A stretch of 64,000 nucleotides of DNA from Lophium mytilinum (taxonomy: Eukaryota): positions 227,397-291,396 of the forward strand of contig MU004191.1 in NCBI GenBank assembly GCA_010093605.1, written 5' to 3'. The first letter of the stretch is position 1. Each line of letters begins with the position of its first letter. Made by a program: the position numbers and the translations under genes. Shown here one piece after another: positions 26,515 through 58,209 of the stretch. The notes beneath the pieces were generated by a model. That model was given only the letters and a program-made list of their open reading frames with translations. It ran no database searches and was not told where the DNA came from.

Positions 26515-26716
26515 GATTTATTGTATTTAAAACGGAGTACATTCCTTGGCGTTTTTCTCTATACACCCCCCCTAATTTTATAAGCGCGTGCCTGGGATTA
26601 TTAGATAGGTTATATATTAATTTTTAACTACTTTTTAATATACCTATATTAGCTATTAGTAAGGCCTCTTATATATATATTAAAGCTTATATACTAATAA
26701 TTTCTAGTATTCTAGT
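26515..26716 (+). repeat. Left terminal inverted repeat (~200 bp)
   Basis: GATTTATTGTATTTAAAACGGAGTACATTCCTTGGCGTTTTTCTCTATACACCCCCCCTAATTTTATAAGCGCGTGCCTGGGATTATTAGATAGG... is the reverse complement of 58007-58209. Differences are almost all transitions. Confidence 0.95.
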
Positions 26717-27339
26717 ACTACTATAATATTCTTAATACAGCGTAATCTTTAATAATAATACCTAACGCTCTAGAGACCTACTAGTAGCTAGAGAAGGTAG
26801 AAAAAAAGAAGAAAGAGAAGAAAGAGAAGAAGTAGGTACTTTTATAGAATTACTTAAAGTTACGCTAAAGAATATATAGACTACTACCTAAAGAGAGAGA
26901 TATATATACTTTAATAATAGCTAAGCTACTATTAAAGCTACTATAAGACTAGGTATAGATCTTTTAGCTAAAATAGTAAAAGAGAGAAAGAATAGACTAT
27001 AGTATAAGGCTTAGGCAGCTAAAAAGGCTATACATAAGGCTATAGTAATAGATAGGTAGCGCGCGGTATAAAAAAAGGTAGTATAATAGTAAAAGAAGAT
27101 AGTATAGTAGTAAGAAGAAGTAGTATAGAATAAAAAGATCTAGAATAGTTATAACTCTATACTAGGTCTACCGCTATTATTACTACTAGATAGAGATAGA
27201 GTACTACCCTTTATATTCTCTTCTACTTTTAGTACTCTAGCGCGCTATAAGCGCGTAGTATTAATATTACTACTAATATCTACTAGTTCTCTAGACTATA
27301 ATATTAACCTATTATTCTAGCTATTTATTAATAAGAAGA

Positions 27340-28660
27340 AGGCGGATAGTAAGGTAGTAGGTATAAGAATATAGTTTAGCCTCTCTAGTAATAATATTAA
27401 GCTAGAACTTAATAAGCTAGTTATAAAGGCATAGGCTAATAGTAACTACTAGGCGGAGTATACTATTACTTTTTATACTATAGTGCTATATACTTTAAAT
27501 AGTAAAGGCGGTATATAAATATATAATATAGATAACTTCTTTATATTCTTTTTTAATAGATTATTTATAGCCCTTAATATAAAGTAGATAGTCTTCTAGA
27601 AGAGTACTATAGCGCTTCTATTTAAATATAAAGTTCTATCTAATCTATCTAGAAAGTTAATTATATTTAAGTTTTTACTAGCTATAGCTATACCTAAGAG
27701 TTATAGTAGGAAGCTACTATAGTAGTATAAGGCTATAATAAGTAGAATTACTAATATAAGAGACTATAATATAGACCTAATATAGTATTAAAAGTATACT
27801 AATAAAGAGTATAGTAACTTTAATAGCTACTACTTTCTTAATAGTAGTAAGCACTTTATTATACTTACTAAGTAGTAGAAGGTATAGGCTAATACTATAG
27901 CGCGCGGTAAGGCTACTATATTAGTGCCCCTAATTAAATTATTAAAGAAGCTTTAAATAAATAGGCCTATAGGTTTAGAATATTATTAGCTAGTAAAGAT
28001 AATAAGAGTATAGTAGATAGTAAGTACTATAGATAATATTAAGGTAATAATAAAATAGACTATAGAGCTTAGTAGTATATAATAGATAATAGCTATAGCT
28101 AAGAGGTTTTTAAGTATATAGTAGCCTTTATTATAGCCTTAGTTATAGCCTTAATAGTAGTAGTATAGCTACTATTCTCTCCCTTCTCTACTACTCTATT
28201 ATCTACTAAATCTATATATTTCTGCTAGGTTTCTAGTATTTCTATATATGCTAGCACCTACGCCTATACCTATGCCTTCCCTTTCTCTACTACTATTACT
28301 ACTACTTTTAACTTAGGCCCTAGCTGCTATAGAACCTTACTAACTAAAGAGCTTAAGCCTAGTATACCCTAAAAAGAAGAATATAAATATACTAGAGGCG
28401 TTCTTCTATTAGAAAGTTAATAGTATATAAAATGCTAGTTTATACTAGCACTAGTAGTAGGCGGCCTAGGTAGTAATAAATTAGGCTTAAAATATAGATT
28501 TCCTCTATTAGATAATAAATAAAAGCTTAAAGGCATATTATAAAACTATATAGCTAGAAATATTAAATAGAATAGCTATAAAGTTTACTAAGAAGCTATA
28601 TAGGTTTAAGTAGCTATACTAGAAGAATAAAGCGGCGTTTAATTTTACTCTACTAGATAA
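27340..28660 (+). pseudogene. RIP-degraded ORF with a Cys/His (W-x-C-x4-C-x-N-x4-C...H) motif and Pro-rich tail
   Basis: The frame at ~27780-27950 de-RIPs to about WKCTDEECSNFNGYCFLDGGKHF...WANTIARGEATISVPP. It is followed by poly-CTA (Pro after de-RIP) and LEAFF..W. Each TAT/TAC/TAG restoration is ambiguous and the ends are approximate. Confidence 0.4.
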
Positions 28661-28760
28661 TAGGGGGTAGAGTGTATAGTAATAGATATATACTATCTAT
28701 CTAATATATACTATCTATAATATATATACTACCTATTAATTAGGGGGTATTTATAGTTTA

Positions 28761-28976
28761 AGGCTTAAGTATTAGTAGTAAGAATTCTATTCTAATATTT
28801 TGCAGCTTAAGTATTAGTAGTAAGGATCTTATTTTAATATTTTAAGGCTTAAGTATTAGCGCAGGGTAAATTTCCTCTACGCTAATACTTAAGCCTTAAA
28901 ATAGAATTCTTACTACTAATACTTAAGCTATAAATTATTAAAATAAGATTCTTACTACTAATACTTAAGCCTTAAG
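28761..28976. repeat. Palindromic cluster of a 13-bp motif (3 forward + 3 reverse copies)
   Basis: GCTTAAGTATTAG at 28763, 28805, 28847. CTAATACTTAAGC at 28882, 28916, 28958. Further copies at 30243 and 30275, and degenerate copies at 37596 and 37636. Confidence 0.85.
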
Positions 28977-29199
28977 TTAGATACTATATAGAGTATATAT
29001 AAAACGGGAAGGCTATATAGAAATAGAATCTATTACTTTATTATATCTTAGTAAATATAAGTTTAAATTATATAAATAGATAGCTAAATTACGCGTTTAA
29101 ATATATATATTTACATCCGCGTACTAAATATATAGAAATATTAATTAGTAGTAATAAACTTTTAAAGTTATAGTTATAGTTTCTAAGTATATAGTTAAA

Positions 29200-29460
29200 T
29201 AGGCTTAATTCTCTACTTCTTTCTTTTAGTATAACTAGCTCTAGGCTTTAGAGCCCGCTTAAACGCTACTATATCTTCTATAGTATTAATCTAAGTATAG
29301 CGCTTACTTTTAACCCTATATATACTATATTTACTATCTAGATTATTATTAGTATAGAAATTAATATTATACTAATAATAGCCCCTAGTAGGTATATTCT
29401 AGGCGCACTCTAGGTATATACTATAGGCTAGGCCCGCCTAATTCTAGCTATATTAGCTAT
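29200..29460 (-). pseudogene. RIP-degraded small Cys-rich segment resembling a Zn2Cys6-like cluster
   Basis: De-RIP reading CLECAQNVPTGGYHRCDINFHTDDDPDGKCSVCRVKSKRC (Cx2C-x11-C-x13-Cx2C-x6-C). Only one Cys codon (TGC) is intact; the rest are restored from TAT/TAC. Confidence 0.3.
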
Positions 29461-30439
29461 TAATAAGCTTTATATAGGTAAGCTTAGCGCGGTAAAAGTA
29501 CTTTTAAAGGGCTATAGTAATAGTAGAGAAGCTAAAAGTAGTAGTAAGATTATTAGTATACTAAGAAGGAGTTAGTAGGCCTAGAATAATAGTAATAGTA
29601 AGAGGAAAGAGTAGATAGTAAGCGCAGCGCTTTCTATATAAATAGGTTAGCTAGATTCTTAAGCTACTATACTAGAAATTATATATAGTAGAGGGGGATT
29701 AGTTTTTTCTTTTTCTTTTTTATTTTTATTCTTCTTTTAATTAGGTATATTATAAATATCTCTACTAATAGTAAGAGTAGAAAGAGAGTATATAGGCCTA
29801 CTATATACTATATAAAGCCTCTAAGGGCTAGAATTCTTTAAGCTCTTACTAGAGAAAGCTTCTAGCGCCTTATCTTTAGCTTAAACGCCTATTATCTTCT
29901 TCTTAGTAAGAAGTAGCCTAGCTACTACTATCTATATTACTAGAGGATCTAGGTAAACTCTAAGAGGCCTAAAGAGGTATATAGTAAGAGATAGAGAGGG
30001 GGAGGGCTCTATAAGAATATTATTAATTAGGCTATTAATAGAGCTTTAATTACTAGTATTATTAGCTATAGTATTATTAGCTATAGTATTATAAAGATAG
30101 TAATTAATAGTATATAAAGTCTAAAGAAAAAAGAGAGTTAAGAAAAAAATAAAAATATATAGAAAAATAAATAATAGCTATTAAGCTTTACTATATAACT
30201 TTATTCTATATTAATATATAAGCTATAGATTATCTACTAGTGCTAATACTTAAGCCTTAAAATATCTACTAGCGCTAATACTTAAGCCTTAGCCTAAAAA
30301 GTATATAAAAAATAGTAAGGCTATATATAAAGTATATATTAAATAAAAAGGCTATATATAGTATATACTTAGGCCTTAACCTACTTCTCTACCTACTTCT
30401 TCTTAATTTAAGTATTAGTATTACCTCTTTTATATACAT

Positions 30440-31440
30440 CTAGCTTAGCCTAAATTCTATCTATCTCTTCTCTTATATAGTATACTTCTCTAGCTATATA
30501 ATAGAACTACTTTTAAGTAAAGTAATTATACTAGCTCTACTTAATAGTAGCCCTTAGAAAGTTACTAAAGTTATAATAGGCCGGGCGTAGGTAATAGTAA
30601 TACCTATAGATTTATACCTTTAGCGTAGTAAAGGTTAACTCTATAGGGTTAAAATCTAGTAAGTATAGCGGTAGAAAATATACTAGATATTCTTACGCCT
30701 AGATTATATATATAAGAGCTTTCTTAGTATATATTCTAATATTATCTAGAATAATAATCTTTAAGCGGCCCTTAAACTTACCTTCTATAGCTAGTAGAAA
30801 AGTAGTAATAATTTAGCTTTAGAACTTCTTAGTATTAAAGTAGCCCTCTTATATAGCTATATATAGTAGCTACTCTACTATACTTATTACCGCGTATATA
30901 CTCTATATATTTCTATAATTTATAGGCCTCTAGTAGTATATAGAACTTCTAATAGATATATATATATAATAGCGCTAGCTAGTCTTCTTATTAAATATAG
31001 ACTTATTAAGAAAGATAAGATCTTTTAGCTTATAGTAACTAGTAAGCTCTAAGTACTTTAACCTTAACTTCTTACTTACGCAGTTTAACTAGCGCTAGGC
31101 CTACTTTTTACTTTATCTATTTCTCTTTATTATATATAATATAGTTAGCTATAAAGCTCTAATACTATACTTAAAATTAAGCTATATTTAAATCTTATCT
31201 TAATTACGCTAGCTATCTTCTAGAAGCTATTAGAGCACCGCCTTTTTATCTACTATAGTAAGTCTTCTTAGCTATTCTATCTTAATTTATAGAGGCCTTA
31301 TAGGCGCGCTATAAAGAATTATATATTTTTCTATATTATATACTATCTTCTAGTAAATATAAATAATCTTAGTAATCTATTTAGAATACTTATTAAGCTA
31401 GAGAAGCTATATAATATCTAGGCGCTATAAGGCTAATATT
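30440..31440 (-). pseudogene. RIP-degraded IS630/Tc1-type (DDE_3) transposase
   Basis: Minus frame, de-RIPped: N-terminal HTH region with GRPRRLT, then LIFLDESIFNEKTGWR (~30975-31020), IIILDNIGIH (~30728-30758) and FLPPYSPDFNPIELTF (~30630-30678). These are the three catalytic D, D, E motifs of DDE_3 transposases. Confidence 0.85.
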
Positions 31441-32164
31441 AGGAATTTCTAAATTAAGAAACGCGCGGAGAATACTAGTTACTTACGTAACCTTCTAGAA
31501 GACTATATATTTTACTGCTCTACGGGCTTTACGCTACTCTATAAAAGTTTACCTACTTTTTATATAAAATTTGCGCGCAGGCTGTATAGATAATTCTTAA
31601 TTATAGATAATCTAGCATTATAGATAATTATTATAGTTAATAACTACTTTATAGTCCTTATAAATATAGCTATCTACCTCCTCTATCTAACCTTTTAAAA
31701 CCGCCTAATCCGCCTAGGTTATAGATAGATAGATAATAACATAGATAGGGCCTTATATACTAAATACATAATTATCGCGTATAGTAGGAAATTTAAAGTT
31801 GCACTAGTATATTTAGTTATCTCTTCTTACTACCTCTACTAGGGCTTTATAGTCTATAGTAACTTTATATATATTATAGACTTTACGCGTTATATAGATA
31901 GTAATACCTATATATATTTCTAAGAATTATATAACTATTACTAACCTTAATAATTTTAATATCCTAGTAGACTATTAGAGCTAGCAACGCGTGCACTAGA
32001 TGTCCGGGCTAGAAAATAGCACGTAATATGCACGTTGCGTGTTAGATAGTAGACTATATAGTAATTTAGAATACATCTAATTGCGGTATATATATTATAA
32101 AATAGAAAGATAATACTAAGTATAAGATAGAGCCTACTTATACTCTATTTACTAATTCTATACT

Positions 32165-36159: not shown

Positions 36160-37069
36160 NNNNNNNNNNNNNNNNNNNNNNNNNNNNNNNNNNNNNNNNN
36201 NNNNNNNNNNNNNNNNNNNNNNNNNNNNNNNNNNNNNNNNNNNNNNNNNNNNNNNNNNNNNNNNNNNNNNNNNNNNNNNNNNNNNNNNNNNNNNNNNNNN
36301 NNNNNNNNNNNNNNNNNNNNNNNNNNNNNNNNNNNNNNNNNNNNNNNNNNNNNNNNNNNNNNNNNNNNNNNNNNNNNNNNNNNNNNNNNNNNNNNNNNNN
36401 NNNNNNNNNNNNNNNNNNNNNNNNNNNNNNNNNNNNNNNNNNNNNNNNNNNNNNNNNNNNNNNNNNNNNNNNNNNNNNNNNNNNNNNNNNNNNNNNNNNN
36501 NNNNNNNNNNNNNNNNNNNNNNNNNNNNNNNNNNNNNNNNNNNNNNNNNNNNNNNNNNNNNNNNNNNNNNNNNNNNNNNNNNNNNNNNNNNNNNNNNNNN
36601 NNNNNNNNNNNNNNNNNNNNNNNNNNNNNNNNNNNNNNNNNNNNNNNNNNNNNNNNNNNNNNNNNNNNNNNNNNNNNNNNNNNNNNNNNNNNNNNNNNNN
36701 NNNNNNNNNNNNNNNNNNNNNNNNNNNNNNNNNNNNNNNNNNNNNNNNNNNNNNNNNNNNNNNNNNNNNNNNNNNNNNNNNNNNNNNNNNNNNNNNNNNN
36801 NNNNNNNNNNNNNNNNNNNNNNNNNNNNNNNNNNNNNNNNNNNNNNNNNNNNNNNNNNNNNNNNNNNNNNNNNNNNNNNNNNNNNNNNNNNNNNNNNNNN
36901 NNNNNNNNNNNNNNNNNNNNNNNNNNNNNNNNNNNNNNNNNNNNNNNNNNNNNNNNNNNNNNNNNNNNNNNNNNNNNNNNNNNNNNNNNNNNNNNNNNNN
37001 NNNNNNNNNNNNNNNNNNNNNNNNNNNNNNNNNNNNNNNNNNNNNNNNNNNNNNNNNNNNNNNNNNNNN
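36160..37069. other. Assembly gap (910 N)
   Basis: Run of n bases. The true length is unknown. Confidence 1.
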
Positions 37070-37779
37070 ATTAAGAAGCGTAATAAATATAATAGTATTT
37101 TAGAGTATTTTCTAAATTAAGTAGAAAGGTTATAAATAGATAGCGTCTAAATTAGCTATAGAGTAGCATATAAATGTATTATACTATCTTAAAACTAACC
37201 TAACTTATCTCTATATCTAATTAGCTATAGTGTTAGTAGTATATTAAAATATAGGTAGCTAGAAAGGGCTTAGTATTAGTAAGTATATACTTTTCTACCT
37301 ATTTTCTTTTAGCTAGTATGTATATATAGCACTAAATTATACTACTATAGACCTATAGTGCACTCTAATTTATAGGCTGCTCTATTTAAATCTCTTTATT
37401 AGAAATATAAGTAAGATTAGACGCATACTATCTACTAATATTCTGCGGTCTAGATTAGAATAGTAGAATAGAGAGTTCTTGCAACCTTTCTATACCTTAT
37501 AATATATAAGAATATTACTAATAATATATATAGGCCTATAGAGTATTAGCGCTGCTATATAAATATTTACCTATATAATACTATAGTTTATATTACTAAT
37601 ACTTAGGCCTTAAATTATATTTAAGGCTTATACTACTAATATCTAAGCCTTATAGTAAGTATATAGTTAAGTAGATTATATTAATATTAAAAATAGGCAG
37701 TCTATAGTAGACCTACTATAGATATAGTATACTTATTAACGCGGCGATTATAGGTATATTATAGAAGTAGAAGTTAAAA

Positions 37780-40700
37780 TAGTTTATTTTATAATGTCTA
37801 CTATAGAACTATATATACTATATAATTAGTGCATTTAGTAGTTACCTTAGTACTAATAGTCCCTTAGTTTTTCTTCTTTTTTAGTATACTTTATATAACC
37901 TTATATATAAACTTATTATTATTAACTATATAGAACTAAGCTAGTATATCTACCGGGTTATTACCCCCTATATAGGCGAGAATAATGCTATATATTCTAT
38001 TAGACCTCTAGTTCTTCTACTATACTCTAGATATAATCTATATCTTAAGGCTAGATATAGTCTATAGCTCTATAACTATTACGCACGTGCATTAAAAAGT
38101 AAAGTTAGAGCCTTCTACTCCTCTAGTCTTCCGGTTCGCAACTAGAATATTAACAGCCGCTAGATTATCTTAATTACGCTTAAAGCCGGTATTAAATTAC
38201 TTCTATTACTTAACTATTAGTAATAAATATAACTATATAAGCTTTTTAGTTAGTATAGTCTTTATAATTATCTAGTATTAATTATATTAGTTTATTAGAT
38301 AATAATTACTAATTATAGATAGAGATAGGTGGCAACTTATAATATAGATAACTAAATTAACTATAGGCTTCTTACTAATAATTAGTATCTTCTTCTTCTT
38401 AGCTTAAATGTATTAAACTATGCTTCTAATTTTCTTTAGCTTTCCTAAATTAGCTAGTAGATTAGTATACTATTTAGTAAGGGTACTCTCTAAGTCTATA
38501 TAATCTATCTAGCCTATATTTTTAATATCTTCTAGAGTAAAGATTAGGTTACTTATTAAGCTAAGCTCTTTCTATTATGTCTTTAACTTAGCCAGCCTAG
38601 AAATTAATGTAAAAATCCAGGGCAGCCTCCCCTTACCTAAGCCCGTTAGAAAGGCGCCTAGGCTAAAGAAAGGCGGCGGCTTATTAATTACTACTTTATA
38701 CCTTAGCTATTCTTTATACTCTTCTTTAAGGTCTATATATCTCTCTCTAATAACTATATAGTACTTCTTAATAAAGAGTTTAAAGCGGTTAGGTATACTA
38801 ACTATTACCTGCTATATAATATAGAGCGGCATATCCCCTAAAAAAAGGCTATCTAGGCTAAGGCTTATTAGTATTCTATAGATACTTATAGCTATAATTA
38901 TATCTAATACTCTCTAGAGACGCCTAGATAATTTAGAATTATTCTATAGTTACCGCTCTTTCTCTATTTTTAAGGTAAGATAGTAACCTCTAGCCCCTAT
39001 AAGGTCTCCTTAATTAATACGCCGGAGGGTAGGGCCTTAATAAAGAATATTAAACTTATCCCCTTTATTTATATTCTCTTTCTCTAACTCCTTATCTAGA
39101 AGAGTATTATTCGGGTTATCTTTAATATTAGCGTCTAAATTAGTTAAGTCCGCTATCTAAGTTAGCGTCTATAAACCTCTATATAGTATAACTATTAGAT
39201 ATAATAGAGTTTTAGGGCCGTAGAGAAAAGAAGTCCTACTATAGAATAAGCCTCTAGGGTAGCTATATAGATTAGCAGCCTTATTAAACCCTTTTAAGTT
39301 CTAGCTCTAATAAACCTAATTAAGCGCACGGTTAATATTCGCCTATTTGCGCGTAGTTAGGCGGAATATATACTAATACTACATGGACTTAATATAGCTA
39401 AAAGCTATAATATATAGAGATATATTATTAAATTCTAGATAGAACTTATTAAAAAAAACAGCCCTATATATATACGTGGGGGTTACTTTATTACTATATA
39501 ATAGGTTATAGAATATTATAAAGGTCTCTAGTAAGTTTAAATTCTTATTATATTTTTTATTAAAGGTCTCCGCGCTTATAATAATAAGGTAGGTTTTTAC
39601 TCTTAGATTTAGCTTATACTACATCTAACTATTTATTTCTTAGTAGATAGGCCTAAGGTTCTTCTAGTCTTTAAAGGTAAAGTTACCCTCTATAATACTT
39701 CTATATACACGCCAGATATAAAGTCTTCTACTAGGGACCTTAAAATCCTTATTCTTATATTTAATATCTAGCTAGTATTTTACCTTCTTATAGGTCTAAT
39801 TTAGTAGACTCTTCTTAGTAAGCTAAATAATGTAGCCTTTAACGCTGCTAGAACGCGGAGTATTAGTACTAGCCTCTCTAGTATAAGTAGTAAATGCTAT
39901 TAATATTTATAGAGTTTTTCCTATCCTAGGGGGGTTTATAAGAATTAGCCTACGCGCTCTACTAGTAAGACCTTAGATAATACTATATATCCCGGCCACC
40001 TAGTATAGGGCCGCATGCATCTTTAGGTTAGTAGTTATTTCTAGCAGCTTAAAGGTTATATTACTAGAAAAATTCCTATATATTAGAGGTAAACTAAAAA
40101 ACTATAGTACCTTCTTAAATGCTGCTACTAAGATATTCTTTATAGAGCTTAATATTAGGGCTATTATAGTAGTAATATTAATAGTATCTATCTTTTCTAT
40201 ATTAGCTATAATTATCTTATTTATATCTATAGAGGGTCTAGTCTTGCTAAGACTATATATATTAAATTTAAGCGTAGCCGCAATATTAATACTACTAATT
40301 ACTATATCCCCTATAACTTAGGTATTACTAGAGATAGTCTAGCCGCTCTCTATAGTAACTATAAGCGCATAGAGTTATTTTTAGGTAGTTAAATACTAAG
40401 TAGTTCTAGGCCTAAGCGCCCTAAGCTACTATATAACCTTATTATAAATAATACTAGGCTAAATAGAATTACGCATTAACTTAGTATATAGCTAGATAAT
40501 ATTAAGTATCTATTAGATTAGTTACGCTTTCTTCTCTATTTATAGCTTCTATACCTTCTTCTCTACTAGTAGTTTCTACTTTCTTTATTTCTCTTACTCT
40601 ACCGTCTCTTCTAGCTATTTCTACCTTTTTACTTTCTCTTTAGTTATAGTCTTAGCTAGCTCTCTCTCCTTCTATTCTATCTACTTCTTAGCCTTCTCTG

Positions 40701-44849: not shown

Positions 44850-46970
44850 AGCCTACCTACTAATATACCGGGTATATAATAGTGCACTTACTCTTATTAT
44901 TTTAATCTAGATATATATAAACTATAAAAGGTAGCCTCTATAAATAAGCCTAAGTACTACTATAACCTTACTATTAAGGGCACTCTTAAGGTTCTTAAGA
45001 TTCTAGAAGAATACCTACCGCCCTTATTTAGAGGCTAGATAATTAGGTGTAATACTAACGCGACCGCTAGTAAAGAGCTAGTAGAGGTCCCTATCTTTCT
45101 TACTATTATTCTAACCTAACTAGCTACCCCTGCTAAGCTAGTAAAACCCTATAAGAGGTTAATATAGAACGCTATTTACTATATAAGGGTCTAAGATAAA
45201 TATAAGTCTTATATTAGTCTACCTTAGAATCTATATTCTAAATAGTATATACCTATTATCTTATATATAATCTATAGAGAATTAGCTAATAGAAGTCTAG
45301 CCTTATAAATATAGCTTATATTTATAGTTCTAGTATTTAGATTACTATATACTAATAAGCTATACTAGATTATATTCTATAGCTAAGCGGACTCTCTACT
45401 TAATACTGTTTATACTAATAAGAAGTTTAAGGCTATAATAATAGATAGTTTTACCTAGATGCACCTAGTTATATCTACGCTAGATACTCTAGAGAAGTTA
45501 GCGTCTATAGAAGTATAAGCTAGAGAATTTTACAGCCTTAAGTAGCCCCTAAACCTACTATAAACTACACCCCCGCTCCTAGAGTTATAGAAGGCTAAAC
45601 TTCTTACCTAAACTAATCTACTATTTATTAGAATTATAGAGCACCTACTAGTGCCCTAGTATAACTACTATACCTACTCTTCTATTAATACTCTAAGTAA
45701 GTATATAGACCTAGATTATATTCTTTATTTTAAGATTACTACTTCTAATATAAAGAAGTAAAGTCTAAATAATAAGCACCGGCATGCTACTTAGACGGCA
45801 TATAAAAATATTGCCTAGCGTACTATACTAGTTAACTTATTATAGAAATAGGTTAATACCTAGACTTATAAGAAGTTTTATAAGGTATTATATAACGCAG
45901 CTGCTAAAATACTTATAGTATTATCTATAACGCTAAATATAGTAAATATAATAAATAATATAGTAGAGAGCTTTATAGACGCAACTAAGCCCCTTTATAT
46001 ATATCTAAATTAGTACTAGGTTCTAATAATAGAGGATTATATACTACTAGAGAGACTATATACTATTAATATTTCCTACTAAGGCTACTCTAACTAGTTT
46101 CTATCCCTGTTTAAGTTAGTATAGATTATAGTTAAGCGAGTTTATAACTTTAAGATAACTAGTAGACCGGAAGGGCATAGTAAATATAATATTAAGAATA
46201 TCCTTAGGTACTATACTAAGGTACTAGATAAGTTTAAGGCTAGCCGGGCTAAGGCTAGTAATAGTGCAGAGGGGGATAAATAGAACGCTGCTAAAGTCTA
46301 CTATATTAATAGTCTAATCTTCTATATAGACTACTATATAGCTAGAGGTTTTACTATATTTATCTAAGAACTAATTACTAATAGTACTATTAACTATTAT
46401 AAAGTAAGTAGCTATTTAGCAGTTAGCTATTACTACTCCGCCTTTAGCTATAATAGAAGTAATAACTTCTACTCTAAGTGCAATACTAGTAAAGATAATA
46501 ATACTAACTAAGATAGTACCTATACGCTATACTCGGGCGATAATAAATTAATACGCCGGCGGCTAACTATCTTAGATTGTATCTATAAGGCTATTCTAGA
46601 CCTTAAGAACTGCGCTAGACTCCTTAATAGAGATAGTAATAGTAGTAATAACTTAAATGCGTAAGATAATTATAGACTATAGAATCCACGCAAAAATAAG
46701 CTTAGCTAGAGAATATAGAACTATATAGCTAAAGCGTTAGCTAAAATATAGTAAGTAGTAGAGGGCTACTATAATTAGGAATAATTAATAATAATTAAAA
46801 ATAATTAGACATTCTATAGGCGGCCTAGGTAGACTATAGTATAAGAGTTACTACTAGCACTAGTTATAGGCGCCGGTAACTTAGATAGAAGGTAGCATCC
46901 CCGCTACTAATTTAGAGGTATTAGTAATCTAGAAGTCTTCTATACCTATATACTTAATTTAAAATACTAA
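44850..46970 (+). pseudogene. Long RIP-degraded reading frame (~700 codons), function unrecognised
   Basis: One plus-strand frame reads as plausible protein, with stops only as TAG/TAA at positions compatible with Q/W/R codons. It is preceded by an intron-like GTAAGT..GCTAAT..TAG at ~44801-44840. Confidence 0.45.
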
Positions 46971-48459
46971 GTTATTATTATATTTACTATAGGTTATATA
47001 TATAAATACTAGATAGTAATATATATAGCCTATAAGCTAATATCTTTCTAGGGCTAAATATCTACTAGCCTAATTTCTAGCACTATTAATAAGGGCTTAA
47101 TAATTCTTTAGCTTCCCTATTAACCCGGTATAGAATAGAGCCTAGAGTTTTACTAGAGTGTTATTATAAAAGTAGCTAAAGAACTTAACCTACTTTTAAT
47201 GGCGCGGTATAGACTATTAAAGAAAGGCTTAAGTACTTTTATAATCTATAAGAAGATAGTCCTCTACTCTTACTACTTACTAGTCCTTATAAGTTATCTA
47301 CTCTCTATCTACCTTATCTTTATTAAGTGTAGTTATTACTAATATATATACCGCTAATTCTACCGCGTATAAGAGGCTTAAGTAGCTAAATTAGTAATAT
47401 TATAAAACTCTCTACCTAACTAGCGCCTTCTAGCTATTATCTAATTTTGCGCCGGCTAAGAGAGACGTAGAGTTTAACCTAGGCTACTTAATGCGCATCT
47501 AATATTACTATCTTATAGCTATTCTATAACTAATACTTACCCTAGCGGCTATCTTCTTAATAACGCCGGCACTCTTAGTAGATGCCCGTTAACTCTATTC
47601 TACTAGACTAGTAATGTATCGCCGCCTAGCGCTCGCCTTATAGAAGGAAGTAACGCGCTTAGACTTAGTATCTTCTTCTATATTACCTAGATAGTACTTA
47701 CCTAGAGTTAAGAGTTCTTTACTATAGCTAGTAACTACGGTAGAAAGTTAGATACTAGAAATTAGTAAAAGGTAATACTTACTTTTAATACACGCTATAC
47801 TATTAGAACTAGGGAAACTAGATATAACTACTAGTATATACTTAAAACTACGCCTACTATAAAGGTTTATACTAGCTATAAAGAATATAGAAATAATAGA
47901 AATAATTATATATAGGCTTTAGAGTTGCAGTTTAAGAAAGTAAGCTATAGTCTTTAACGCGTAGATATATTAAGGTTCTAGGCTAATAGAATAGCCCGCC
48001 CCCTATTAGAATATATTACGTGCTATTAAAGAATAATAAGTACTATATACTAGCCTATAATCTAATATAATCTATAATAATTACTTATAATCTATAAGTT
48101 TCTATATAGGGCTAACTAAATTTAACTAGAAATAGAGTATATACCTTCTACTAAATATAGATACTACTATAAGTTATTTTAAATACTTAGTGCCCTAAAT
48201 AAATATATACTATACTATAAAAAGCTTCTTAAAATACTGCAGCAGGTCCCGCTTACTAATACTAGAACTACTAGATCTATAATCTAGTCTTATATACTCT
48301 ACGTTATTTAGATAATAGACGGGATATTATTTAGAACGCCTAGATTACTACTAGTAAGTCTACCTCTACTAGCTAACCTCTATAATAAGATAAAGTATAA
48401 GATAAATAGAATAGAGCTATATATCTCTAGTAAACTAAAAGAGTACTAGAGTCCGCCTT

Positions 48460-51400
48460 TTATAAATAAAGGCCCTATAAGCTTAATATATAATAACCCG
48501 CCGGAGGCTACTAAATTCTATATTCCGCACTAATAAGGCTAACTAATAATATTATCTATATTATTGCTATAAGAGGAAGTATATCTCTCTACTAAATTAG
48601 GCATGCCTGCAGGGGCGTCTATTAGATAGGCTAATACTAGATAGTAGATATAAGTATTATTAGAGACCGCTATCCCCCCCGCCTATAAAGGCGGTATTAA
48701 AGCTTACTAACTAGTTACTCTATTATAGGGACTAATCCCCCTTCTATCTATTTTAATTAGCGTTTAACTATACTTTTATATTATAGCTTTAGTAGATTAG
48801 CTGCACTAAGAATAATATTAACCTGCTATTTAATAATATCTACCTTAAGAGCATATTCTCTAACTTTCTTATATTTACATCGGGCGATTTATAGAATAGT
48901 AAACTAGAGAAAATTAAATATAGCGTTAATAATACTAACTATATAGTAGAGATGCTATATTTCCTAAGTAAAAAATAAAGCTTAAGTAGAGAGTAGTATC
49001 TAGTATACTACTTTAATATAATAGTAGCTATATTATTCCTAATTAGACACCGCCCTTTCTATAATTACCTTATATTTATACTAGTTTAAGTCTATAATAT
49101 AGAAGGCTAGTAGGTATATACTAAGTTATATATATTAGACTAGTAGTAGTAGACTTAGTTAAAGCTTCTAGCGGGGGCTATAGTAATACCTATCTTACTC
49201 TCCGTAGATAAGATATAGCTTATCTAATATTGCGGCGATAAGAGCGTATAGCTAGTCTATCTAACTATTAGTAACCTAGATAGAACTATATGGCGCTTAA
49301 ATATATTACCTAGCACTCTACTACTAGGCTTTATACTAAGCACGGCGGATAAAGGAGACTATCTAAAGTATTAGCTATACTATAGCTCTTTAGGCTATAT
49401 TCTTAGATATTAGTAAAATTCTTACTAATACTAAGTAGTTTTCTAATATAAAATAAGCTATTATAGAATATACTACTAATAGAATTATACTAGAATACAG
49501 GGATAGTAAGAATTAAAGGTGCTATCTAGTATTATACAGAATTATAGCTAATTATAAAGAATAGAGCCTACTTATAGGTATTAAATTTAGAAAACACTAT
49601 ACTATATACTAGGTACTATTACATTAATATAAAGACCTAGAGACTAAACATACTATAAGGTCTTACTACTTAACTATTATTTAGATTAAATAGCAACGTA
49701 ATAATAAAGAGCGTTTAAAACTTCTACTAAATAAAGTACTATATAATATAGAGGCTATAGAGCTTAATATAGAGTTATATATATATTCTATAAATAACTT
49801 TACTTAGAAATACCCCTATACTAATATCTACTAGATAATAATAATAGATATTCTATACTAACTATTTACGGGCGTTATTTATAACCTTATTAAATAGGTC
49901 TAGCTACTAGTAGCGGAGGTCTACACCCTAGCAATTAGAAGAAAAGATGCCTATATTCTAATAGAAAATAAGAGCGGCTTAACCTAGCTAGATAAGTAAT
50001 TTAAGGACGTGCTGCCTTTCCCGGGTCTATCTATATTTAATAAGAAGAATTTTAGTAAACTCTTATAGTATACTAGCTCTAAATAAAAGTCTATAGCCCG
50101 CTAGCTTATAGTAGTAGTAGCACTACTACTAGAAGTAAAGGCGCTAAATACGCTCTAGTTTATCTATGCAATACTTAATTTTACTATTCTAGTATAGTAT
50201 AAAATATATAATAAGGCTACGCTAGAGTATATAGAGCTAGCGATAGCTTAAATTAATATATATAAGTTAGAATTTAGGATATTTAGACCTAGAAATAAGA
50301 ATAGAAACTACGCCTTCTACTACTTAAAATTCTATATTATATAGTACTACGTTAATTTTATATAGAAATTTAGCGCTATTAATAGCTATAACACTAGCTT
50401 AAATAGTAAAGTAAAATACTAACACCTAGTTAAATTACAGTATTAGTTAATAAACTATAAGGACTTTCTACCCTAGATCTACTAATTAAACTAGAGACTT
50501 ATAAATAACTAGGCCATAAATAATATACTAAACTACTAATATTACTATCCTTAACTAGCAGCGATAAGAGATATGCTAATGCAATAGATAATAGTATTAG
50601 AAAGTATTAACATCTTAAACTTTAAATAGCCTAGATATAATAATTCCTATAAAGGCTAAATAGTATACTATCTAAAAGTAAGTATTAAGTATATAGCTAA
50701 TATAAGCTAGAAGCTAGACTTTATAGCCGCCGCCGCCGTATTTATTTAAGAAGAGAGGCGTAAGATCTAAGGCTAATATACTAAGCCTAGCAGCCTAGAT
50801 ATATTAGACCCTAATCTATTCTAGGTTAGCTACCTCTAGCTTAAGTTCTATGCTAGTATTTTATATTAGAAGTAATTAGGTACTAGTAAGAACCTAGAAA
50901 GCCTTATAAAAGAAAATCTATAGTATAACCCTAAGTAGTAGAACTAAGAATAGTAATATAACTATCTATAGGTATAAGAGTATAGCTTAAACTATACTAA
51001 AAATAGAAAGACGCGCGTTAGTATTACTAATAGAAGGTTAGTAGAGTAGCTATAATTTATAGTAACTATTATAGACTCTATTCTAAAGGGTAAAGATACC
51101 CTATAGGCGGTATACTCTAGAGTTTTTATTTACCTTCTAGCGCTAATTAATAACGGAAAGCTATATTATATCTATAGCCTAGTAGAGGTAGCTTTTTAGG
51201 CTTCTAATAATAGCCGCCGCTAATAAAAGCTAGAAGTATATTAATTCTATCTACTACTATAAGTCCTCTAAAGTGCACATATTATACTAGCTACCTTTAG
51301 CCCGGACTCTACCTGTTTTTTTATTAATAACTATATTAACTAGAATTAATATAATACACTCTATATAAAAGACTAGAAGATAGAGGTATAAGAGATAATA

Positions 51401-51594
51401 AGGTAGTACTAGCTTAGCAGTTACACTAAAGAGATTAAAGCTACCCTAAGAGTTAAAGACGCAGTAGAGTTTTTAGTAAAGCGCGCAAGGGTAAAAGTAC
51501 TTACTAACGCCTCTTTCCTACAACTAAGCCGGTAAATACTAAGAAGTAGTATAGTAAAAAGAAGCTATAGCACTAGCAAGCAACGGCGTAGGTA
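48460..51594 (+). pseudogene. RIP-degraded Plavaka-family transposase
   Basis: De-RIPped: FLIGHRPF..LVFAPVRVYN.EGQRVYTEL..DWWWQTQ.KLPAGATV.PILLS.DKTQL.Q.CGDKS.WPVYLTIGNLD (~49035-49280); CGDGKNRRCYPVL..IMADYEEQSLLTG; DILHQLFTGV (~49850); LDKRFKDVPPFPGL; YPKFHIMQHYVDFIRKFGAIDGYDT; C-terminal FINNYIDWDQYNTLY (~51320-51365). These match the conserved blocks of Plavaka transposases (Pfam Plavaka). Ends are approximate. Confidence 0.9.
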
Positions 51595-51699
51595 GAAATA
51601 AGGCCGCAAGGAAAGATATTCTTAATTTTTCCCTACTATTAAGAGATAATTAAGCATTATTTAGCTTTATTAACCTCTAAGGCTAATTAATATAAGATA

Positions 51700-54600
51700 A
51701 TAACTATGTACTTTCCTATATAATTTCTATAAAACTAGGTAACGCTAGTATACCCCGCTAGCGCTACCTTACTTTACTTTTTAAAATTGCATATTACTAC
51801 CTTTACCTATTTCCCTTTACTAATAATAGCCGCCTAATTAAATTTACCGGCTACTTAAACTTACTACCCCCTAATTACTTTCTTTCCTTAATACTTTATA
51901 GTAATTAACCCTAAATAGCGCCTATAGTAAGCACGTTATCTATACTAGAGGTTCTAGGCTATAGTTAAGTTATAAACCGCTTTCTAGTAGGTTAATACTA
52001 TAAGATAGAGGTATAAGGTATAAACCTTAATATACTTAAACTATACTTACCTATTCTAGTCTAGTTAAACGCGGATAAACCTCTCTCTAAACCGGGTTAG
52101 AACTATAAGATACCCTCCGCCTTTACTAGAGCGTATACGTCTAAAGAGGGGGATATCTTCTACCTCTATAACTTTAAGCATGTTAGTAATAATACTCTAT
52201 ATTTTAGCCCTATTAAACTAACACCTACAAGCTATATAATATTCTAGCTAATAATACTAAGCTAATAGAATAAGTATTTTATTAATTAAAGCTGCACCTA
52301 TCTATACACAGTTAGAATGTAATTCTCTTATAGCCCTACGCTATAAGATATAATACTAAGATAAATTATCTAGAAAAGTTAGTAAGCATTAGCCTACTTA
52401 AAGAGGTAAGTAAGTACTCCCTCTTCTATAGATACCTGCTAATATAATATCCCTTTTCTAGCTATTTAGGTAATACTATTAAGACTCTATTATTTATAAT
52501 ACTTATATATATATATTACCGGGTAAAATACTAATCTTTACTCTTCTAAAATTCTTTTATATATACAGTTACGTCTACTATATAGACCTAAATACTAATA
52601 AATACTTTAGCCTATAACTATTATCTCCTACTATAATATATATAGATTGCGGATCCGCTAGCCTTATAGATAAGTGCACCAGTCTAGACCCGCTCTAACT
52701 AAACGCAGCTAACTAGTTAATAATACTTTAAAACCTCTTAAGTAATATCTATATATAATATATTATTAACTATAAATAATAGTTAGACTATAATCTACTA
52801 AAGCCTTTTAATCTAGAGGACTTTTAGCACTTAGTTAATCTATATATAATAGAACTTACTAACTATAGAACTAATTTAAAGATAAGTAAAGCGTTTAAGT
52901 TAGAATTTAAGCCTAATATAGATAATATAGAGAAGAAGAATATAGAGATAGAGATAGGCAAGATAGGTAATATTAAAGTAGAGATAGAGGCAGATAATAT
53001 AGAGATAGAGGATAGCGGGTAGAAGGCTTCTCTTAAGCGTGCTTAAGTTATATAGTAGGTAGTATATATAGTTAGTCTAGACCCCTAAATATAGTAGTTT
53101 ATTCTATAATAGCGTCTATATTTAAGTATAAGGTATAATAGGGTTTTAAAAATATTAATATATAAGTTAATTACTAGCAATTTAATTTTTCTTACTACCT
53201 ATACGCTTAACCCTTCTCTTTTATAGATTATTAATTATAATTAGAGATTATATATATCTCCCTTTTATAATTAGAGTTAGCCCGCTACTTATATTATCTT
53301 ACCCGTCTTAATTCTATTATACTCCTTCTTATTAAGCAGGGCTACTACTTATTTAAATACCGCGCAGGTATATATAAGTTAGTTACACTAGTTAAGATTT
53401 ACGCCCTATAAACTATTTAAAGTAATACCTAGGGTAGCTAATATTAGGGGCTACATTTCTAATAATATTAAGAGGTATTCTATTAGTAGACCTACTACCC
53501 TATCTAATAGACCTAAATTCTTTCTCTAATTCTAAAGTAGCATATATTATTCTTTATCTTTAGGCCCTAACGCTAGAAGACTGCTCTTTATAGAGCCCGG
53601 TATTACCCGCAGCTTCTACTCTATTACCTCTAACACTTAATATAATTAATTATAATTAGAGATTATTACCCTCTCGCAATAGTATAAAGTCTACCTTAAC
53701 TATCTAACTTCTTAGGCTACGTAGCATTATCTATTACCTAAGCTAAGGCTATAAACCTACTTTACCTAGTAGACGCGCATTATATTATAGCTAGTAAAGA
53801 CCTTTACCTTCTCTACTAATAACTAAGCAGGCTAGTAAGTAAAATTTAACTCTAACCTTACTCTTATATATAAGCCTTACTATACTCTTTCTTACTATAT
53901 TACTAATAGCTTAATAGCCTAAGTTACTATAACCCCGCTACTATAATAGAGTAGATAGCAGTCTACTAGAATAGACTAGTAGACCTTACTATTACTATCT
54001 ATATTAATAGCTATATAGACTACTTTAAAGCGCTATATACTATATATAGTAGAGATAATCTAGAGAAAGCTACTATATTTCTCTAGCGCCCTTAGAAAGA
54101 TATTATAGACTTTAAGATTAAATATAACGCACTTATCTAGTCTATATATAAGTATTTACTATACCTAGTTCTAAGTTAAGAATTAAATAATATAAAGGGC
54201 GGCTAGTCTAATAAGCTAGAGATAAAAACTATGCCGGAGGTAGTAAAGAAGGCCTATAGAAAGGGCTCTAAAAGCTTCTTTATTAAGAATTAGGCCTATA
54301 TAAATCTATCTACTACTTCCCCACCTATATCTACTAACTATTTACTAGTATAAGAAGCTTATAGTACCTATAGTTCTAGATAAGAGCGGCTTTAAATACT
54401 CTAGAGGTAAAGAAGGTATAGTAGTATAGCTGCGTAAGGGCTATAGACTCTAAGTTAATATATCTATAAATACGCTTAATATTACTAGTAGTATAGCACT
54501 AATTATATATATAAGCTATACTTTAATACCTACCCTACTAAGTATATTCTAATCTATACTTATTAATATAGATGTTAGAAAGACCTTCTACTACTACTAA

Positions 54601-56080
54601 GACCTAAAATATACGCCGCTGCTATATATAAGAAGATTATATATTTACTAACCTGCATTTAGTTCTCTTACTAATGCGTGCCTACTTTATTAACTCTAAA
54701 GATAGTTCTATATTTAAAGTTAGCCTTATAAACCTAATATTATTCTACTTAAATTACGCCGCCTTAGGTAAGGCTATTAGCTACTATGCAGCTACATCTA
54801 GGGAGAAAGGGGAGAAAGATAACTATAACCTCTAACTAGAAGTCTAAATTTATACTAAGCACATCCTTATAGTTAAGCTGTAGATCTTAATATTCTAGAA
54901 GACTAGAAGCGTATAAGCGGCGCTATTATTACTAGAGACCTATATCTTTATAGATAAGCTATAGACCTTAATACGCTAGAAGACTAGAGGTATATAAGAG
55001 GCGCTATTATTGCCGGAGACCTTAGTAATAGCTAAGGCTAAAGAGAAGAACTTAGAAATAGTAGTATTAGAATAAGAGACTTAAGATGCAACCTTAAAGA
55101 ATAAATATAAAGCACTATCTAATAAACTAGAGCCTATAGATCTTATAGAAGATAAAGATAAATTAGATATATACTACTTTAATAATAGAAAAAACTAGGT
55201 AGAGAAAGTTAACTAGAATAAAGAAAATACTATAAAGAAGGTATTATTTATAGGAGACCTAGATAGCTTAGAGGTAGCGGAGGCGGCCTTATATAAGGCT
55301 AAAATAGGCCTAATTATAGCTTAGACTAGCATTAAGAAGGCCTTAGAAATTATGCGTACTTACATAGTAAGGGATAAAGAGAAGAATACTAACTCTACTA
55401 TCTTTTACTTCTCTAATATTATCTAAGAGACGCCTAAAAGTAGATATAGAAGGCGTATATACTTAGTATAGTAAGTACCTTCTTAAGAAATTACTAATTT
55501 TCTAGTATATATATAGGTAGAAAGCGGCCTTAAATAGAACTATATAAGTCTACCTATATATACTTTCTATATACCTTCTATACTCTTACACTGCTACTAA
55601 GTTAACTTTTAATAAATGTATAGCATGTATATATACCTTATATCTTAAAGCCTACCTCCGCCCTAAGCTCTAACTTAGAAACTACTTATCTACCTACTTC
55701 TAATATAAACCCCCTAAACTACACGCGCTTAAAAATACTACTAGTCTTATAATACCTATTTAGAGATATTCTATAGTTATAATACCTAGCGCGTTAAGCT
55801 ATAATATAAGGGATTAAACCTAAGGCTAATTAAGAATAACTATTAGTAATAATAGCGCACTACTATAAAGACGCACTTATATAAGATTCTAATAGTATAC
55901 TTAAGAAAAAAGTATATAGTAACTATTAGTTAAAATACATGCGCCTAAGTTTTAAATTTCTAGCGCCTGCCCGCATATATAATAGAACTATTCTCCTCTA
56001 TTCTATAGATATAAAAGCCTGCCCTATATCTCTTTCTCTATACTATAGAGTAGTAGAAGGTAGTAAGAGTTAAAAAGGTA
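51700..56080 (+). pseudogene. Further RIP-degraded plus-strand reading frames (at least two), unassigned
   Basis: Codon-like frames at ~51700-53020 (ending in an acidic E/D tract) and ~54000-56080. No family motif recognised. Confidence 0.3.
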
Positions 56081-58006
56081 GAAGAGTTATAGTAGAGATT
56101 AACTTAAGGCTAACTATTTAAAATATAGCGGGTATTAAAATTATATATACTAATAAATTATAGTAGAGGCTAAAGCTAGTAGAAACTTATTTAAGAAGCT
56201 AGAATATAGAGAATAAGAGGCAGTACGTAGGTATAGCTTACTAATAGTATCTACTATAATAGAAAGCTAATAGCGCACTAATATTTAGGTTAGTAGTTAA
56301 ACTAGCATAGTTCTATAGAGCTATATTAGGTAAAGATAATATACTCTAGTATTACTAGCTTATATTATCTACTAAGCTTCTCTATCTCTTCTACTCTACT
56401 CTATAAGCTTTTTTATCTACTAGGTTTCTCTATTCCTCCCGCTCTACTCTATAGAATTTTTTTTCTACTAAGTTTCTCTATCCCTCCCGCTCTACTCTAT
56501 ATAATAGCGCCTTAGTTCTAGTATAATCTTTTATATACATAGCTCTTAATCTTCCTAACTACTATATATAACTATATATCTATATTCCCTACTAGCTTTT
56601 AACTCTACCCTAACTACTACTTCTCTAGCCCTACTTTCCTTAGAAAATAAGCGGGCGGATAGAATATATACTCTATTACTAGTGCTAGATATACTTTAAT
56701 CTAGTATTATAGGGACAACCTAGCCCTTATATATACTAGTAATAGATAACTATCTACTATATAATAATGCAGTAGAGAGAGGGAAAATAAAGCTACCTCT
56801 ACTCTAATATCTCTAACTCTTCTTATAGTACTATATAAGATTATTTAGGATTATATAAAATTATCTATAATTATTATAGCGTGCCCTCTATATTTTTACA
56901 TTCTAAAAGAGACTCTAGCCTATTTCTTTAAGTATATTTTAGGTTCTATAACTGCCCTGCTAGATAGAGAGTATATATTTTTATTACCTTTTAGCGCATA
57001 AGTATACTATAGGCTAGGTTATAAAATAATAGTATCCTAACTTCTAAGGTTAGAAGTATAATAGGAGAGACTATAAATAGAGGAGCGGTAACCTAAAATA
57101 TAGATAGAAGAAGTAAAGTATACTAATATAGAGAGAAATAAGAGATATAGAAGAAGTAAATAGAAAGAAGGGGCTATAGAGGTAGTAGCATTATAGCTAT
57201 AATACTAGAGGCTATTCTATAATATAAATATAAGAGACTACTGCTAGAGCTTATATTAGTAGTAGAATAGTTATATACTTTTTATTATTTATAGATAGTT
57301 ATATACCGCGGCCTAACTCTTAAATAATAGGTCTTAGTAGTAATATAGTAAGAGTCTACCTAAGAATATATTAAGTATCCTAATTATAATTTATAAGCCG
57401 GACCTAGCGCTAAATTATAGAATAGATAGATTATATCTTTTCTACCTATTCTCTATGCATTTATTAAATCTACTTTTTAACTACTACAGCCCTAACTTTA
57501 CTATACTAACTATTTATAGAATAAAGATTAAACGTTCTAGCCTAAGTACTTACTATTTCTACTTACTTCTACCCCCGCCTTATACTACTATAGAGAGGAA
57601 AGAGCGGTAAATAGAATTATTTTATAGTAGGATGTAGGTAGTATTATATATGGGGCATGTATATATTAGCTCTAGCACTACTAAGGCTAATTAGGTAAAA
57701 GATACTATAGAACTAAATTATTAATAGTTTAAAATAATAGATAATAATTAAGTATTATTAGACTATATAGTATATAGGTAAACTACTACTAGTCTATATA
57801 GTAATATTACCTGCGCTAGTAGTTTATATAGATATTATATAATTTATATAGTTTACTAGAAGTTTACGCCGTTCGCTACTAAGTACTAATAGCCCTAACT
57901 TTTGCAGTTTTAGGTTTTTCTAATAAATATTAGGGTTTAATTCTAGAGTTAGGTTTACATGCTAGTAGAGAGGAGGATTTAACTATAGATTAAGTTATTA
58001 ACTTAC

Positions 58007-58209
58007 ACTAGAAATACTAAAAATTATTAGTATATAAGCTTTAATATATATATAAAAGGCCTTACTAATAGCTAATATAGGTATATTAAAAAGTAGTTAA
58101 AAATTAATATATAACCTATCTAATAATCCTAGGCGCGCGCTTACAAAATTAGGGGGGGTGCACGGAGAAAAACGCTAAGGAATGTACTCCGTTTTGAATA
58201 CGACAAATC
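58007..58209 (-). repeat. Right terminal inverted repeat (~200 bp)
   Basis: ...CCTATCTAATAATCCTAGGCGCGCGCTTACAAAATTAGGGGGGGTGCACGGAGAAAAACGCTAAGGAATGTACTCCGTTTTGAATACGACAAATC, the reverse complement of the left TIR. Its outer ~70 bp is less RIP-mutated than the left copy. Confidence 0.95.

Follow-up and report, generated by a model that had tools for sequence, protein, structure and literature searches.

A RIP-mutated block of 31.7 kb between long terminal inverted repeats in Lophium mytilinum, possibly a copy of a very large, multicopy Plavaka-type transposon

The window considered here is a stretch of 64,000 nt from contig MU004191.1 (positions 227,397 to 291,396; assembly GCA_010093605.1) of Lophium mytilinum, a dothideomycete, a host consistent with repeat-induced point mutation (RIP). 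Its central part is occupied by an AT-rich block that is enclosed by a pair of long terminal inverted repeats (TIRs), bears a RIP signature from end to end and contains the remnant of a Plavaka-type transposase. The whole element copy, which is given no strand, extends from 26515 to 58209 and measures 31,695 nt, including an unstranded assembly gap of 910 N (36160 to 37069). It is delimited by the TIR pair, the RIP indices and steps in GC content.

The left TIR lies at 26515 to 26713 (plus strand), with its outer ~90 nt less RIP-mutated than the rest, and the right TIR at 58011 to 58209 (minus strand). An inverted-repeat search returned arms of 197 nt with 94% identity (26515–26711 and 58013–58209), and the blastn version of the same repeat is 203 nt long at 93.6%. 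As RIP yields only transitions, the arms were recoded as purines and pyrimidines, and in this coding they match perfectly over 199 nt (26515–26713 and 58011–58209), compared with at most 34 nt in five of five Markov-simulated controls. The letters themselves differ at 14 of the 199 positions, and all 14 differences are transitions: six are in a CpA/TpG context, four in CpG, three in CpT, and one is at the end of the arm without a readable context. An earlier, sequence-only reading of this DNA had described inverted repeats of ~200 bp bracketing the AT-rich block, in agreement with this pair. Both arms start with GATTT(A/G)T(T/C)G, the left one reading GATTTATTG and the right one GATTTGTCG, and the position of the terminus is backed by paralogous contigs that leave the right TIR for other flanks at 58208 and 58209.

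GC content is 0.25–0.35 within the block (~26.6 to 58.1 kb) and 0.45–0.63 on either side of it. Throughout the 1-kb bins between 27001 and 58000, TpA/ApT is 1.56–2.32 and (CpA+TpG)/(ApC+GpT) is 0.03–0.37; in the flank bins the composite RIP index is negative. At a resolution of 100 nt, GC content falls from 0.61 through 0.37 to 0.18 at the left TIR end and rises from 0.16 through 0.43 to 0.64 at the right TIR end. These changes in GC and RIP indices place both limits of the RIP signature at the outer ends of the TIRs. It had been proposed from the letters that RIP begins and ends at the TIRs and is uniform between them, and both statements hold, the first at 100-nt resolution and the second in all of the 1-kb bins. 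The indices, compared with the flanks, and the almost transition-only divergence among copies (see below) together characterise the block as a RIP-affected repeat.

The gene content of the block was scanned by comparing 24 translations (all of the block in six frames, stop codons rendered as X) to Pfam. Families were found in three of the 24, and just two of them, PF18759 and PF13358. The decayed core of a Plavaka transposase (PF18759) is located at 48967 to 49882 on the plus strand and is split between two frames, with many of its codons altered by RIP. The piece at 48967–49551 reaches 37.7–39.0 bits (E 7.6e-10, cutoff 26.3) over profile positions 34–241 of 325, and the piece in the other frame, at 49448–49882 (plus strand), reaches 20.1–21.3 bits over profile positions 191–318. 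PF18759 is the sole transposase domain in the block above its own Pfam cutoff, so the Plavaka transposase that had been recovered earlier by eye is substantiated (39.0 bits, cutoff 26.3). A Tc1/IS630 transposase had been named as well, and this fares less clearly: there is a DDE_3 match (PF13358) at 30615 to 31019 on the minus strand, a probable Tc1/IS630-type remnant, but it is marginal, at 27.5 bits (E 3.3e-6) just below the cutoff of 28.6. No TIR above chance brackets it, and the outer ends of the element are not flanked by TA; the remnant may be nested, captured or hitchhiking. Neither reverse transcriptase, integrase, RNase H or tyrosine recombinase, nor any other transposase family, was found in the 24 frame translations. 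A word-based homology search with the Plavaka core gave 1766 and 2093 candidates, none of them at E ≤ 0.001 or at E ≤ 10, which shows the loss of shared words by RIP and not an absence of relatives.

Contigs from two public runs (X1 and X2; one sample, ~45 Mb, probably the source of the assembly) were placed at ≥80% likeness on positions 38290–58289 of the window, referred to below as the right 20 kb. A query consisting half of flank and half of element has a word share of 0.72–0.74 in these runs. The numbers of contigs placed on the right 20 kb are 5246 (X1) and 4922 (X2), of which 62% and 59% are ≥95% alike. Divided by likeness (≥99, 95–99, 90–95 and <90%), they number 1436, 1796, 1612 and 402 in X1, and 1294, 1612, 1587 and 429 in X2. 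The listed kinds of difference are nearly all transitions (1064 versus 6 transversions in X1, or 99.4%; 1444 versus 7 in X2, or 99.5%), and this is the pattern of RIP between paralogs. All 30 bins of 667 nt are covered, with an uncalibrated summed depth of 2923–5724 in X1 and 512–1711 in X2, a spread between bins of up to 2-fold and 3.3-fold, respectively, and single contigs that are ~88% alike have depths of 124–203 (X1) and 75–128 (X2). The right 20 kb of the element is multicopy in the L. mytilinum genome. The sequence-only reading had suggested this for most of the unit, and for the right 20 kb the thousands of contigs with almost exclusively transition differences bear it out. From these data we infer a family copy number of at least some tens.

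The right terminus recurs elsewhere in the genome. Three contigs of X2 exit the right TIR at 58208 and three at 58209, continuing into a median of 255 nt of unlike sequence with normal GC content, and they therefore represent other insertion sites with the identical right terminus. Among the loose ends listed (12 of 330), no equally long one with at least three records was found inside the 20 kb, and the inner boundary of the TIR has no listed loose end either. The list of skip joints for the right 20 kb comprises two, each from one contig. One of them, 47027>51230, comes from an X1 contig with a depth of 162.5 and a side of 21 nt, and skips 4.2 kb that include the Plavaka core. It was tried as an empty site, lacking a nested Plavaka insertion, and rejected, as its breakpoints show neither a TIR nor a Plavaka terminus and it occurs in a single contig; it may be one internally deleted, non-autonomous copy. 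A metagenome scan with a RIP-degenerate 51-nt core of the TIR gave no matches.

Self-comparison of the block revealed no long direct or inverted repeat besides the terminal pair, and neither this comparison nor the purine/pyrimidine test found a pair of long terminal repeats (LTRs) or a second TIR pair inside it. In a calibrated purine/pyrimidine search, the best inverted pair around the DDE_3 remnant scored 22 (control maximum 25) and the best pair around the Plavaka core 26 (control maximum 27), in a test that detects TIRs of ~26 nt upward and lets shorter ones escape. With no long internal repeats and no bracketing pairs above chance, the outer TIR is the only recognisable boundary structure. 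A transition-tolerant Smith–Waterman search for nested TIRs produced alignments that ran over kilobases and scored barely above shuffled sequences. One pair of segments, 43473–43515 and 51719–51761, was tried as a TIR around the Plavaka gene and discarded, just a core of ~25 nt being alignable.

Shorter repeats are present in the interior. A palindromic array of 42-nt units with the motif AATACTTAAGCYTTAA occupies 28753 to 28975 (unstranded; 218 nt, from 28758 to 28975, in the self-comparison), three copies on the minus strand being followed by three on the plus strand, and further copies of the motif are found at 30245–30379 and 37598–37613. The motif is 16 nt long, contains CTTAAG and has 10 matches where 0.44 are expected; none of 100 shuffles reaches 10. 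The array could be a candidate protein-binding array or an insert resembling a miniature inverted-repeat transposable element. A 48-nt tandem repeat in three copies (56357 to 56501, unstranded) lies 1.7 kb from the right end, and the block also holds purine-rich low-complexity tracts and short tandem arrays. Rfam returned nothing within the block.

In each of the six frames, the background density of stops is ~11 per 100 codons. When 300-codon windows were compared with a second-order Markov null at a family-wise threshold of 5%, five segments had significantly few stops. Two of these form a single frame of 1151 codons and a third is its antisense, of low complexity, leaving three independent low-stop frames (38290–41742, 45660–46775 and 26516–27952). 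The Plavaka remnant itself fails this stop-density test, and the power of the test is therefore low. The longest of the three, a decayed frame of at least 1151 codons on the minus strand (38290 to 41742), has 64 stops, where equally long frames have a median of 130, and passes the Markov null. It includes a K/E-rich stretch at ~40633–40929 and a P-loop-like motif, NPPRIGKT, at 39913–39936. The decayed reading frame at 45660 to 46775 (plus strand) has 13 stops in its best 300-codon window, the family-wise threshold being 14, and no Pfam family. A low-stop frame on the minus strand that runs into the left TIR (26516 to 27952), possibly coding, has 12 stops in its best window and likewise no Pfam family. 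Many decayed frames on both strands had been reported for the block; three independent ones do beat the Markov null, and only three, in a test of low power.

Two low-complexity tracts, pyrimidine-rich and purine-rich, lie nearby at 40527–40970 and 42707–42772. The first encodes, on the minus strand, the K/E-rich part of the 1151-codon frame. Both create spurious low-stop antisense frames, and both were left out as repeats in the contig mapping.

Pfam at E ≤ 10 assigned a family to none of the five long low-stop frames. With the P-loop frame as query, phmmer found no match among 1.84 billion representatives and only antibody chains (E ~0.4) among PDB sequences. The motifs NPPRIGKT, ALYX..G and SLLNX had suggested an SF2/SNF2-like protein by eye, and this assignment was dropped, being a reading of RIP-degenerate motifs without a control. 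An SNF2-like helicase, a DUF6532-like ORF (open reading frame) and Cys-rich ORFs had all been listed by the sequence-only reading as parts of a multi-gene payload. The helicase was not confirmed by the 24-translation Pfam scan, by Pfam at E ≤ 10 or by phmmer; no DUF6532 domain appeared in the 24-translation scan or in the low-stop frames; and no CxC domain was recognised in the Pfam scans. These missing matches are a sensitivity limit after heavy RIP and no proof of absence. A cargo would call for at least one recognisable host-type gene inside the boundaries that is conserved from copy to copy; Pfam and phmmer recognised no non-transposase family there, and the claim of a payload is not sustained. 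It may be that the decayed frames represent accessory genes or cargo.

On the right, the element is followed by a plus-strand gene with exons from 58860, which encodes a family-20 glycosyltransferase of the TPS1 type (Glyco_transf_20 of Pfam, E 1e-17 to 1e-94), as had been read from the sequence. The left neighbour is on the minus strand. Its two ORFs, 24967–25833 and 26042–26416, are exons of one gene, because the annotated protein has 406 aa. This protein is 100% identical to an NCBI Lophium mytilinum protein and 88% identical to one of Mytilinidion resinicola, and no Pfam family was found in it (24967–26416). Its remoter relatives are annotated as having a DEK C-terminal domain or as 'transcriptional regulator', and they lend no direct support to the label HIRIP3-like that the gene had been given. 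The element begins 98 nt upstream of the start codon of the left gene and ends 650 nt upstream of TPS1, so the insertion site is a divergent promoter region of ~750 bp between a DEK-C-related gene and TPS1. Further to the right, a 378-aa ORF (61840–62976) contains a repeated proline-rich segment (MPPTPVL...), with a 116-nt direct repeat of 84% at 62443–62708, and has no Pfam family. Far to the left of the element, a tandem array at 9639–10699 (context 7800–11200) consists of ~6.7 copies of a 155–167-nt unit with 76–77% match. It is non-coding (no ORF of ≥150 aa) and mildly RIP-like, with a composite index of 0.45–0.75, and is probably a local RIP substrate.

We judge the chances to be about even that the block is one member, destroyed by RIP, of a multicopy family of very large TIR transposons of the cut-and-paste kind, most probably moved by a Plavaka-type enzyme of their own. 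A DDE transposase, most probably the Plavaka-type enzyme represented by the remnant at 48.97–49.88 kb, would have mobilised the unit by binding to its long TIRs, and the family would have amplified to roughly tens of copies. During sexual cycles every copy would then have been hit by RIP, the unit being duplicated over its full length, and the mutations would have stopped at the TIR ends, where the duplication stops. The rest of the interior would comprise at least one further long decayed gene, one or two other frames, the Tc1-type remnant and the repeat arrays. The proposal assumes that the Plavaka enzyme acts on these TIRs, and we infer that all 31.7 kb are collinear in other copies. A stronger version is that the full ~32 kb is a single unit. 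The family would then be the largest fungal family of TIR cut-and-paste elements known so far, with tens of copies and ~1 Mb of the ~45-Mb genome, a divergent enzyme of the Plavaka lineage, 200-bp TIRs with a new terminus, and large accessory genes of its own, including a P-loop protein of at least 1150 residues. We hold this version tentatively, at somewhat less than an even chance.

Several observations weigh against the proposed transposon family. Published descriptions give TGT..ACA termini with 2-bp target-site duplications (TSDs) for PlavakaA, CATCA..TGATG termini with 2–3-bp TSDs for PlavakaB (Kojima 2025, PMC12730594), and 2-bp TSDs with a CATAC motif for Plavaka consensus elements of Tuber (PMC12581995). 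The terminus 5′-GATTTGTCG matches none of these, and no direct repeat of 2–11 nt abuts both ends of this copy at zero offset. The flanks read ..GGCTG on the left and GGGGT.. on the right, and the sole near match to a TSD (TAGGCTG versus TGGGTTG) is displaced by 4 nt and would arise by chance with a probability of ~0.14, roughly estimated over the offsets tried. Neither for the Plavaka remnant nor for the 1151-codon frame did sequence searches retrieve a relative. The contig evidence covers the right 20 kb of the element, and the longest placed pieces, of 189–310 nt, are too short to show collinearity over many kilobases directly. The summed depth is uncalibrated against single-copy DNA and is not a copy number, both runs are from one sample, and the depth near the Plavaka gene is at the low end (e.g., 512 and 681 in X2). 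There are 330 loose-end rows on the right 20 kb, and 189 of 5246 contigs in X1 and 175 of 4922 in X2 are only partly placed on it; loose ends are likely under-counted, since contigs of repeat families tend to end where copies diverge. A back-joint, 55076>52925, with 38 other letters between, is found in both runs (depth 195 and 86.7), and some paralogous copies have a rearrangement or local duplication at 52925–55076. Finally, contigs diverge just before 49238, within the Plavaka core, in three records per run that have the same 23-nt alternative sequence, and this is a variant or indel common to several copies.

Some of these points also suit a composite origin, in which a much smaller TIR element inserted between the two genes. 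Unrelated multicopy transposons would later have landed in it and RIP would have blurred the internal boundaries; only the outer shell would be one element, and the 31.7 kb would never have been mobile as a whole. RIP-mutated, AT-rich blocks that consist of mosaics of transposable elements are common in Dothideomycetes. The block contains two different transposase families, its outer termini are unlike those of Plavaka, and nested TIRs shorter than ~26 nt would escape the test applied. The 330 loose-end rows, the 189 of 5246 partly placed contigs, and the variation in summed depth (up to 2-fold in X1 and 3.3-fold in X2) also speak for a composite. Against it, neither an LTR pair nor a second TIR pair nor a domain of a retroelement was found in the block. 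Through dozens of contig layers, 20 kb yielded no well-supported skip joint (two joints, one contig each), and the joint that removes the Plavaka region has no TIR or Plavaka terminus at its breakpoints. In each of the 30 bins the depth indicates multicopy DNA, with a narrow range overall, and, among the loose ends listed (12 of 330), long ones in at least three records are restricted to the outer end of the TIR. We regard a composite as rather unlikely, while keeping it as the chief rival to the transposon family proposed above.

A large mobile unit could also be real without being a Plavaka, its TIRs belonging to another or an undescribed superfamily whose transposase is too decayed or acts in trans, and the Plavaka gene being a passenger or nested remnant. 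The terminus GATTTGTCG and the absence of a 2–3-bp TSD depart from both published boundary features of Plavaka, ~28 kb of the interior have no assignable family, and long TIRs are found more typically among Mutator-like elements and some of the Tc1 type. Against this, there is no 9–11-bp or TA TSD, no MULE-type (Mutator-like element) Pfam family in the 24 translations, in which RIP lowers sensitivity, and no MULE, hAT or other DDE family above cutoff in any frame. CACTA/EnSpm proper is not indicated either, as the 5′-CAC(TA)..GTG-3′ termini and a 3-bp TSD are absent and no Transposase_21-type family occurs in the 24 translations. Plavaka is the only transposase domain past its Pfam cutoff, and no dothideomycete is among the few lineages for which Plavaka termini have been described. 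The choice is between a lineage of Plavaka whose termini are new and another element, the owner of the TIRs, that carries a Plavaka gene as passenger; we consider a large unit of the latter kind unlikely. An assembly artefact would be a scaffold in which two different RIP blocks have been linked through the 910-N gap, with TIRs from different loci or elements. The gap does lie inside the block, and a highly repeated family invites mis-scaffolding, but either side ends in unique, GC-normal flank exactly at the TIR end, the TIRs are inverted as expected of one element, and the two flanks together make up a normal short divergent intergenic region. This explanation is very improbable. Least credible of all is a Starship or another giant element of the tyrosine-recombinase type, for which the size of 32 kb and the Pezizomycotina host would fit the available descriptions. 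Starships typically have no long TIRs and are usually low-copy, so that TIRs of 199 nt and many copies are atypical; no match to their DUF3435-type recombinase, the 'captain' expected near one end, was found in the 24 frame translations, in which sensitivity is again lowered by RIP, and a DDE transposase is present.

Apart from Starships, the DNA transposons of fungi are thought of as small. If the proposed family is real, a DDE cut-and-paste enzyme can amplify a unit of this size in a compact genome with active RIP. One may then ask how the family kept ahead of RIP, and whether its large genes had a part in this, in the manner of anti-silencing accessory genes in other systems. Automated repeat annotation is likely to have left the family unclassified or misclassified.

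A search of the literature, subscription journals and some supplements aside, found no fungal TIR element of ~32 kb and no Plavaka in this lineage; PMC12910237 has no occurrence of Plavaka, CACTA or CMC. Among known giant elements, the block shares with Starships (PMC9156397) that it is a giant mobile element of Pezizomycotina, and differs in having a DDE transposase where Starships have a tyrosine recombinase, 199-nt TIRs and many copies. ToxhAT (14 kb; PMC12506042) is a large TIR-type DNA transposon with extra genes in the same fungal class, the Dothideomycetes, but it is half the size, has a hAT transposase and carries a defined cargo, ToxA, whereas no cargo gene is identified here. En/Spm (CACTA) families of 16–20 kb with 4–5 ORFs are known from Chondrus crispus (cited in PMC6431247). 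They resemble the block as members of a CACTA-related group that go far beyond the usual 1–2 ORFs, and differ from it in that no CACTA terminus and no 3-bp TSD are present here. With the fungal Plavaka families (PlavakaA and PlavakaB of Agaricomycotina, and those of Tuber and Marasmius) the block shares the PF18759 transposase domain, from which membership of the EnSpm/CACTA-related CMCT group would follow. This domain was used to recognise Plavaka in Marasmius (Hiltunen 2021, PMC8290104), and by that measure the remnant at 48967–49882 is a Plavaka; the terminus GATTTGTCG, the 199-nt TIRs and the lack of a TSD in this copy set it apart from those families.

A further likeness is to the giant Plavaka elements of red algae, which measure 17.4–19.1 kb in Bostrychia moritziana, occur also in Chondrus crispus and carry three accessory genes (bioRxiv 10.1101/2025.02.11.637652). 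These genes, PAG1-3, are of the DNA methylase/SET and ParB/2OG oxygenase types according to the same source. The Plavaka class is therefore not new, and the premise of the sequence-only reading, which knew of no definition of its boundaries, is outdated: boundaries of Plavaka elements are published, and giant multi-gene ones are already on record in red algae. The L. mytilinum block differs from the red-algal elements in its length of ~31.7 kb, its ascomycete host, its inactivation by RIP and its termini, and PAG1-3 were not detected in the 24 translations. It resembles them in combining a Plavaka-type DDE transposase with a very large, high-copy element of TIR type, and in having further long genes and arrays of inverted and tandem repeats. 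A single unit of ~32 kb, if that is what the block represents, would be a counterpart to the giant multi-gene Plavaka elements of red algae, and its tens of TIR-bounded copies would widen the range of giant multi-gene elements of the Plavaka type beyond red algae, to ascomycetes.

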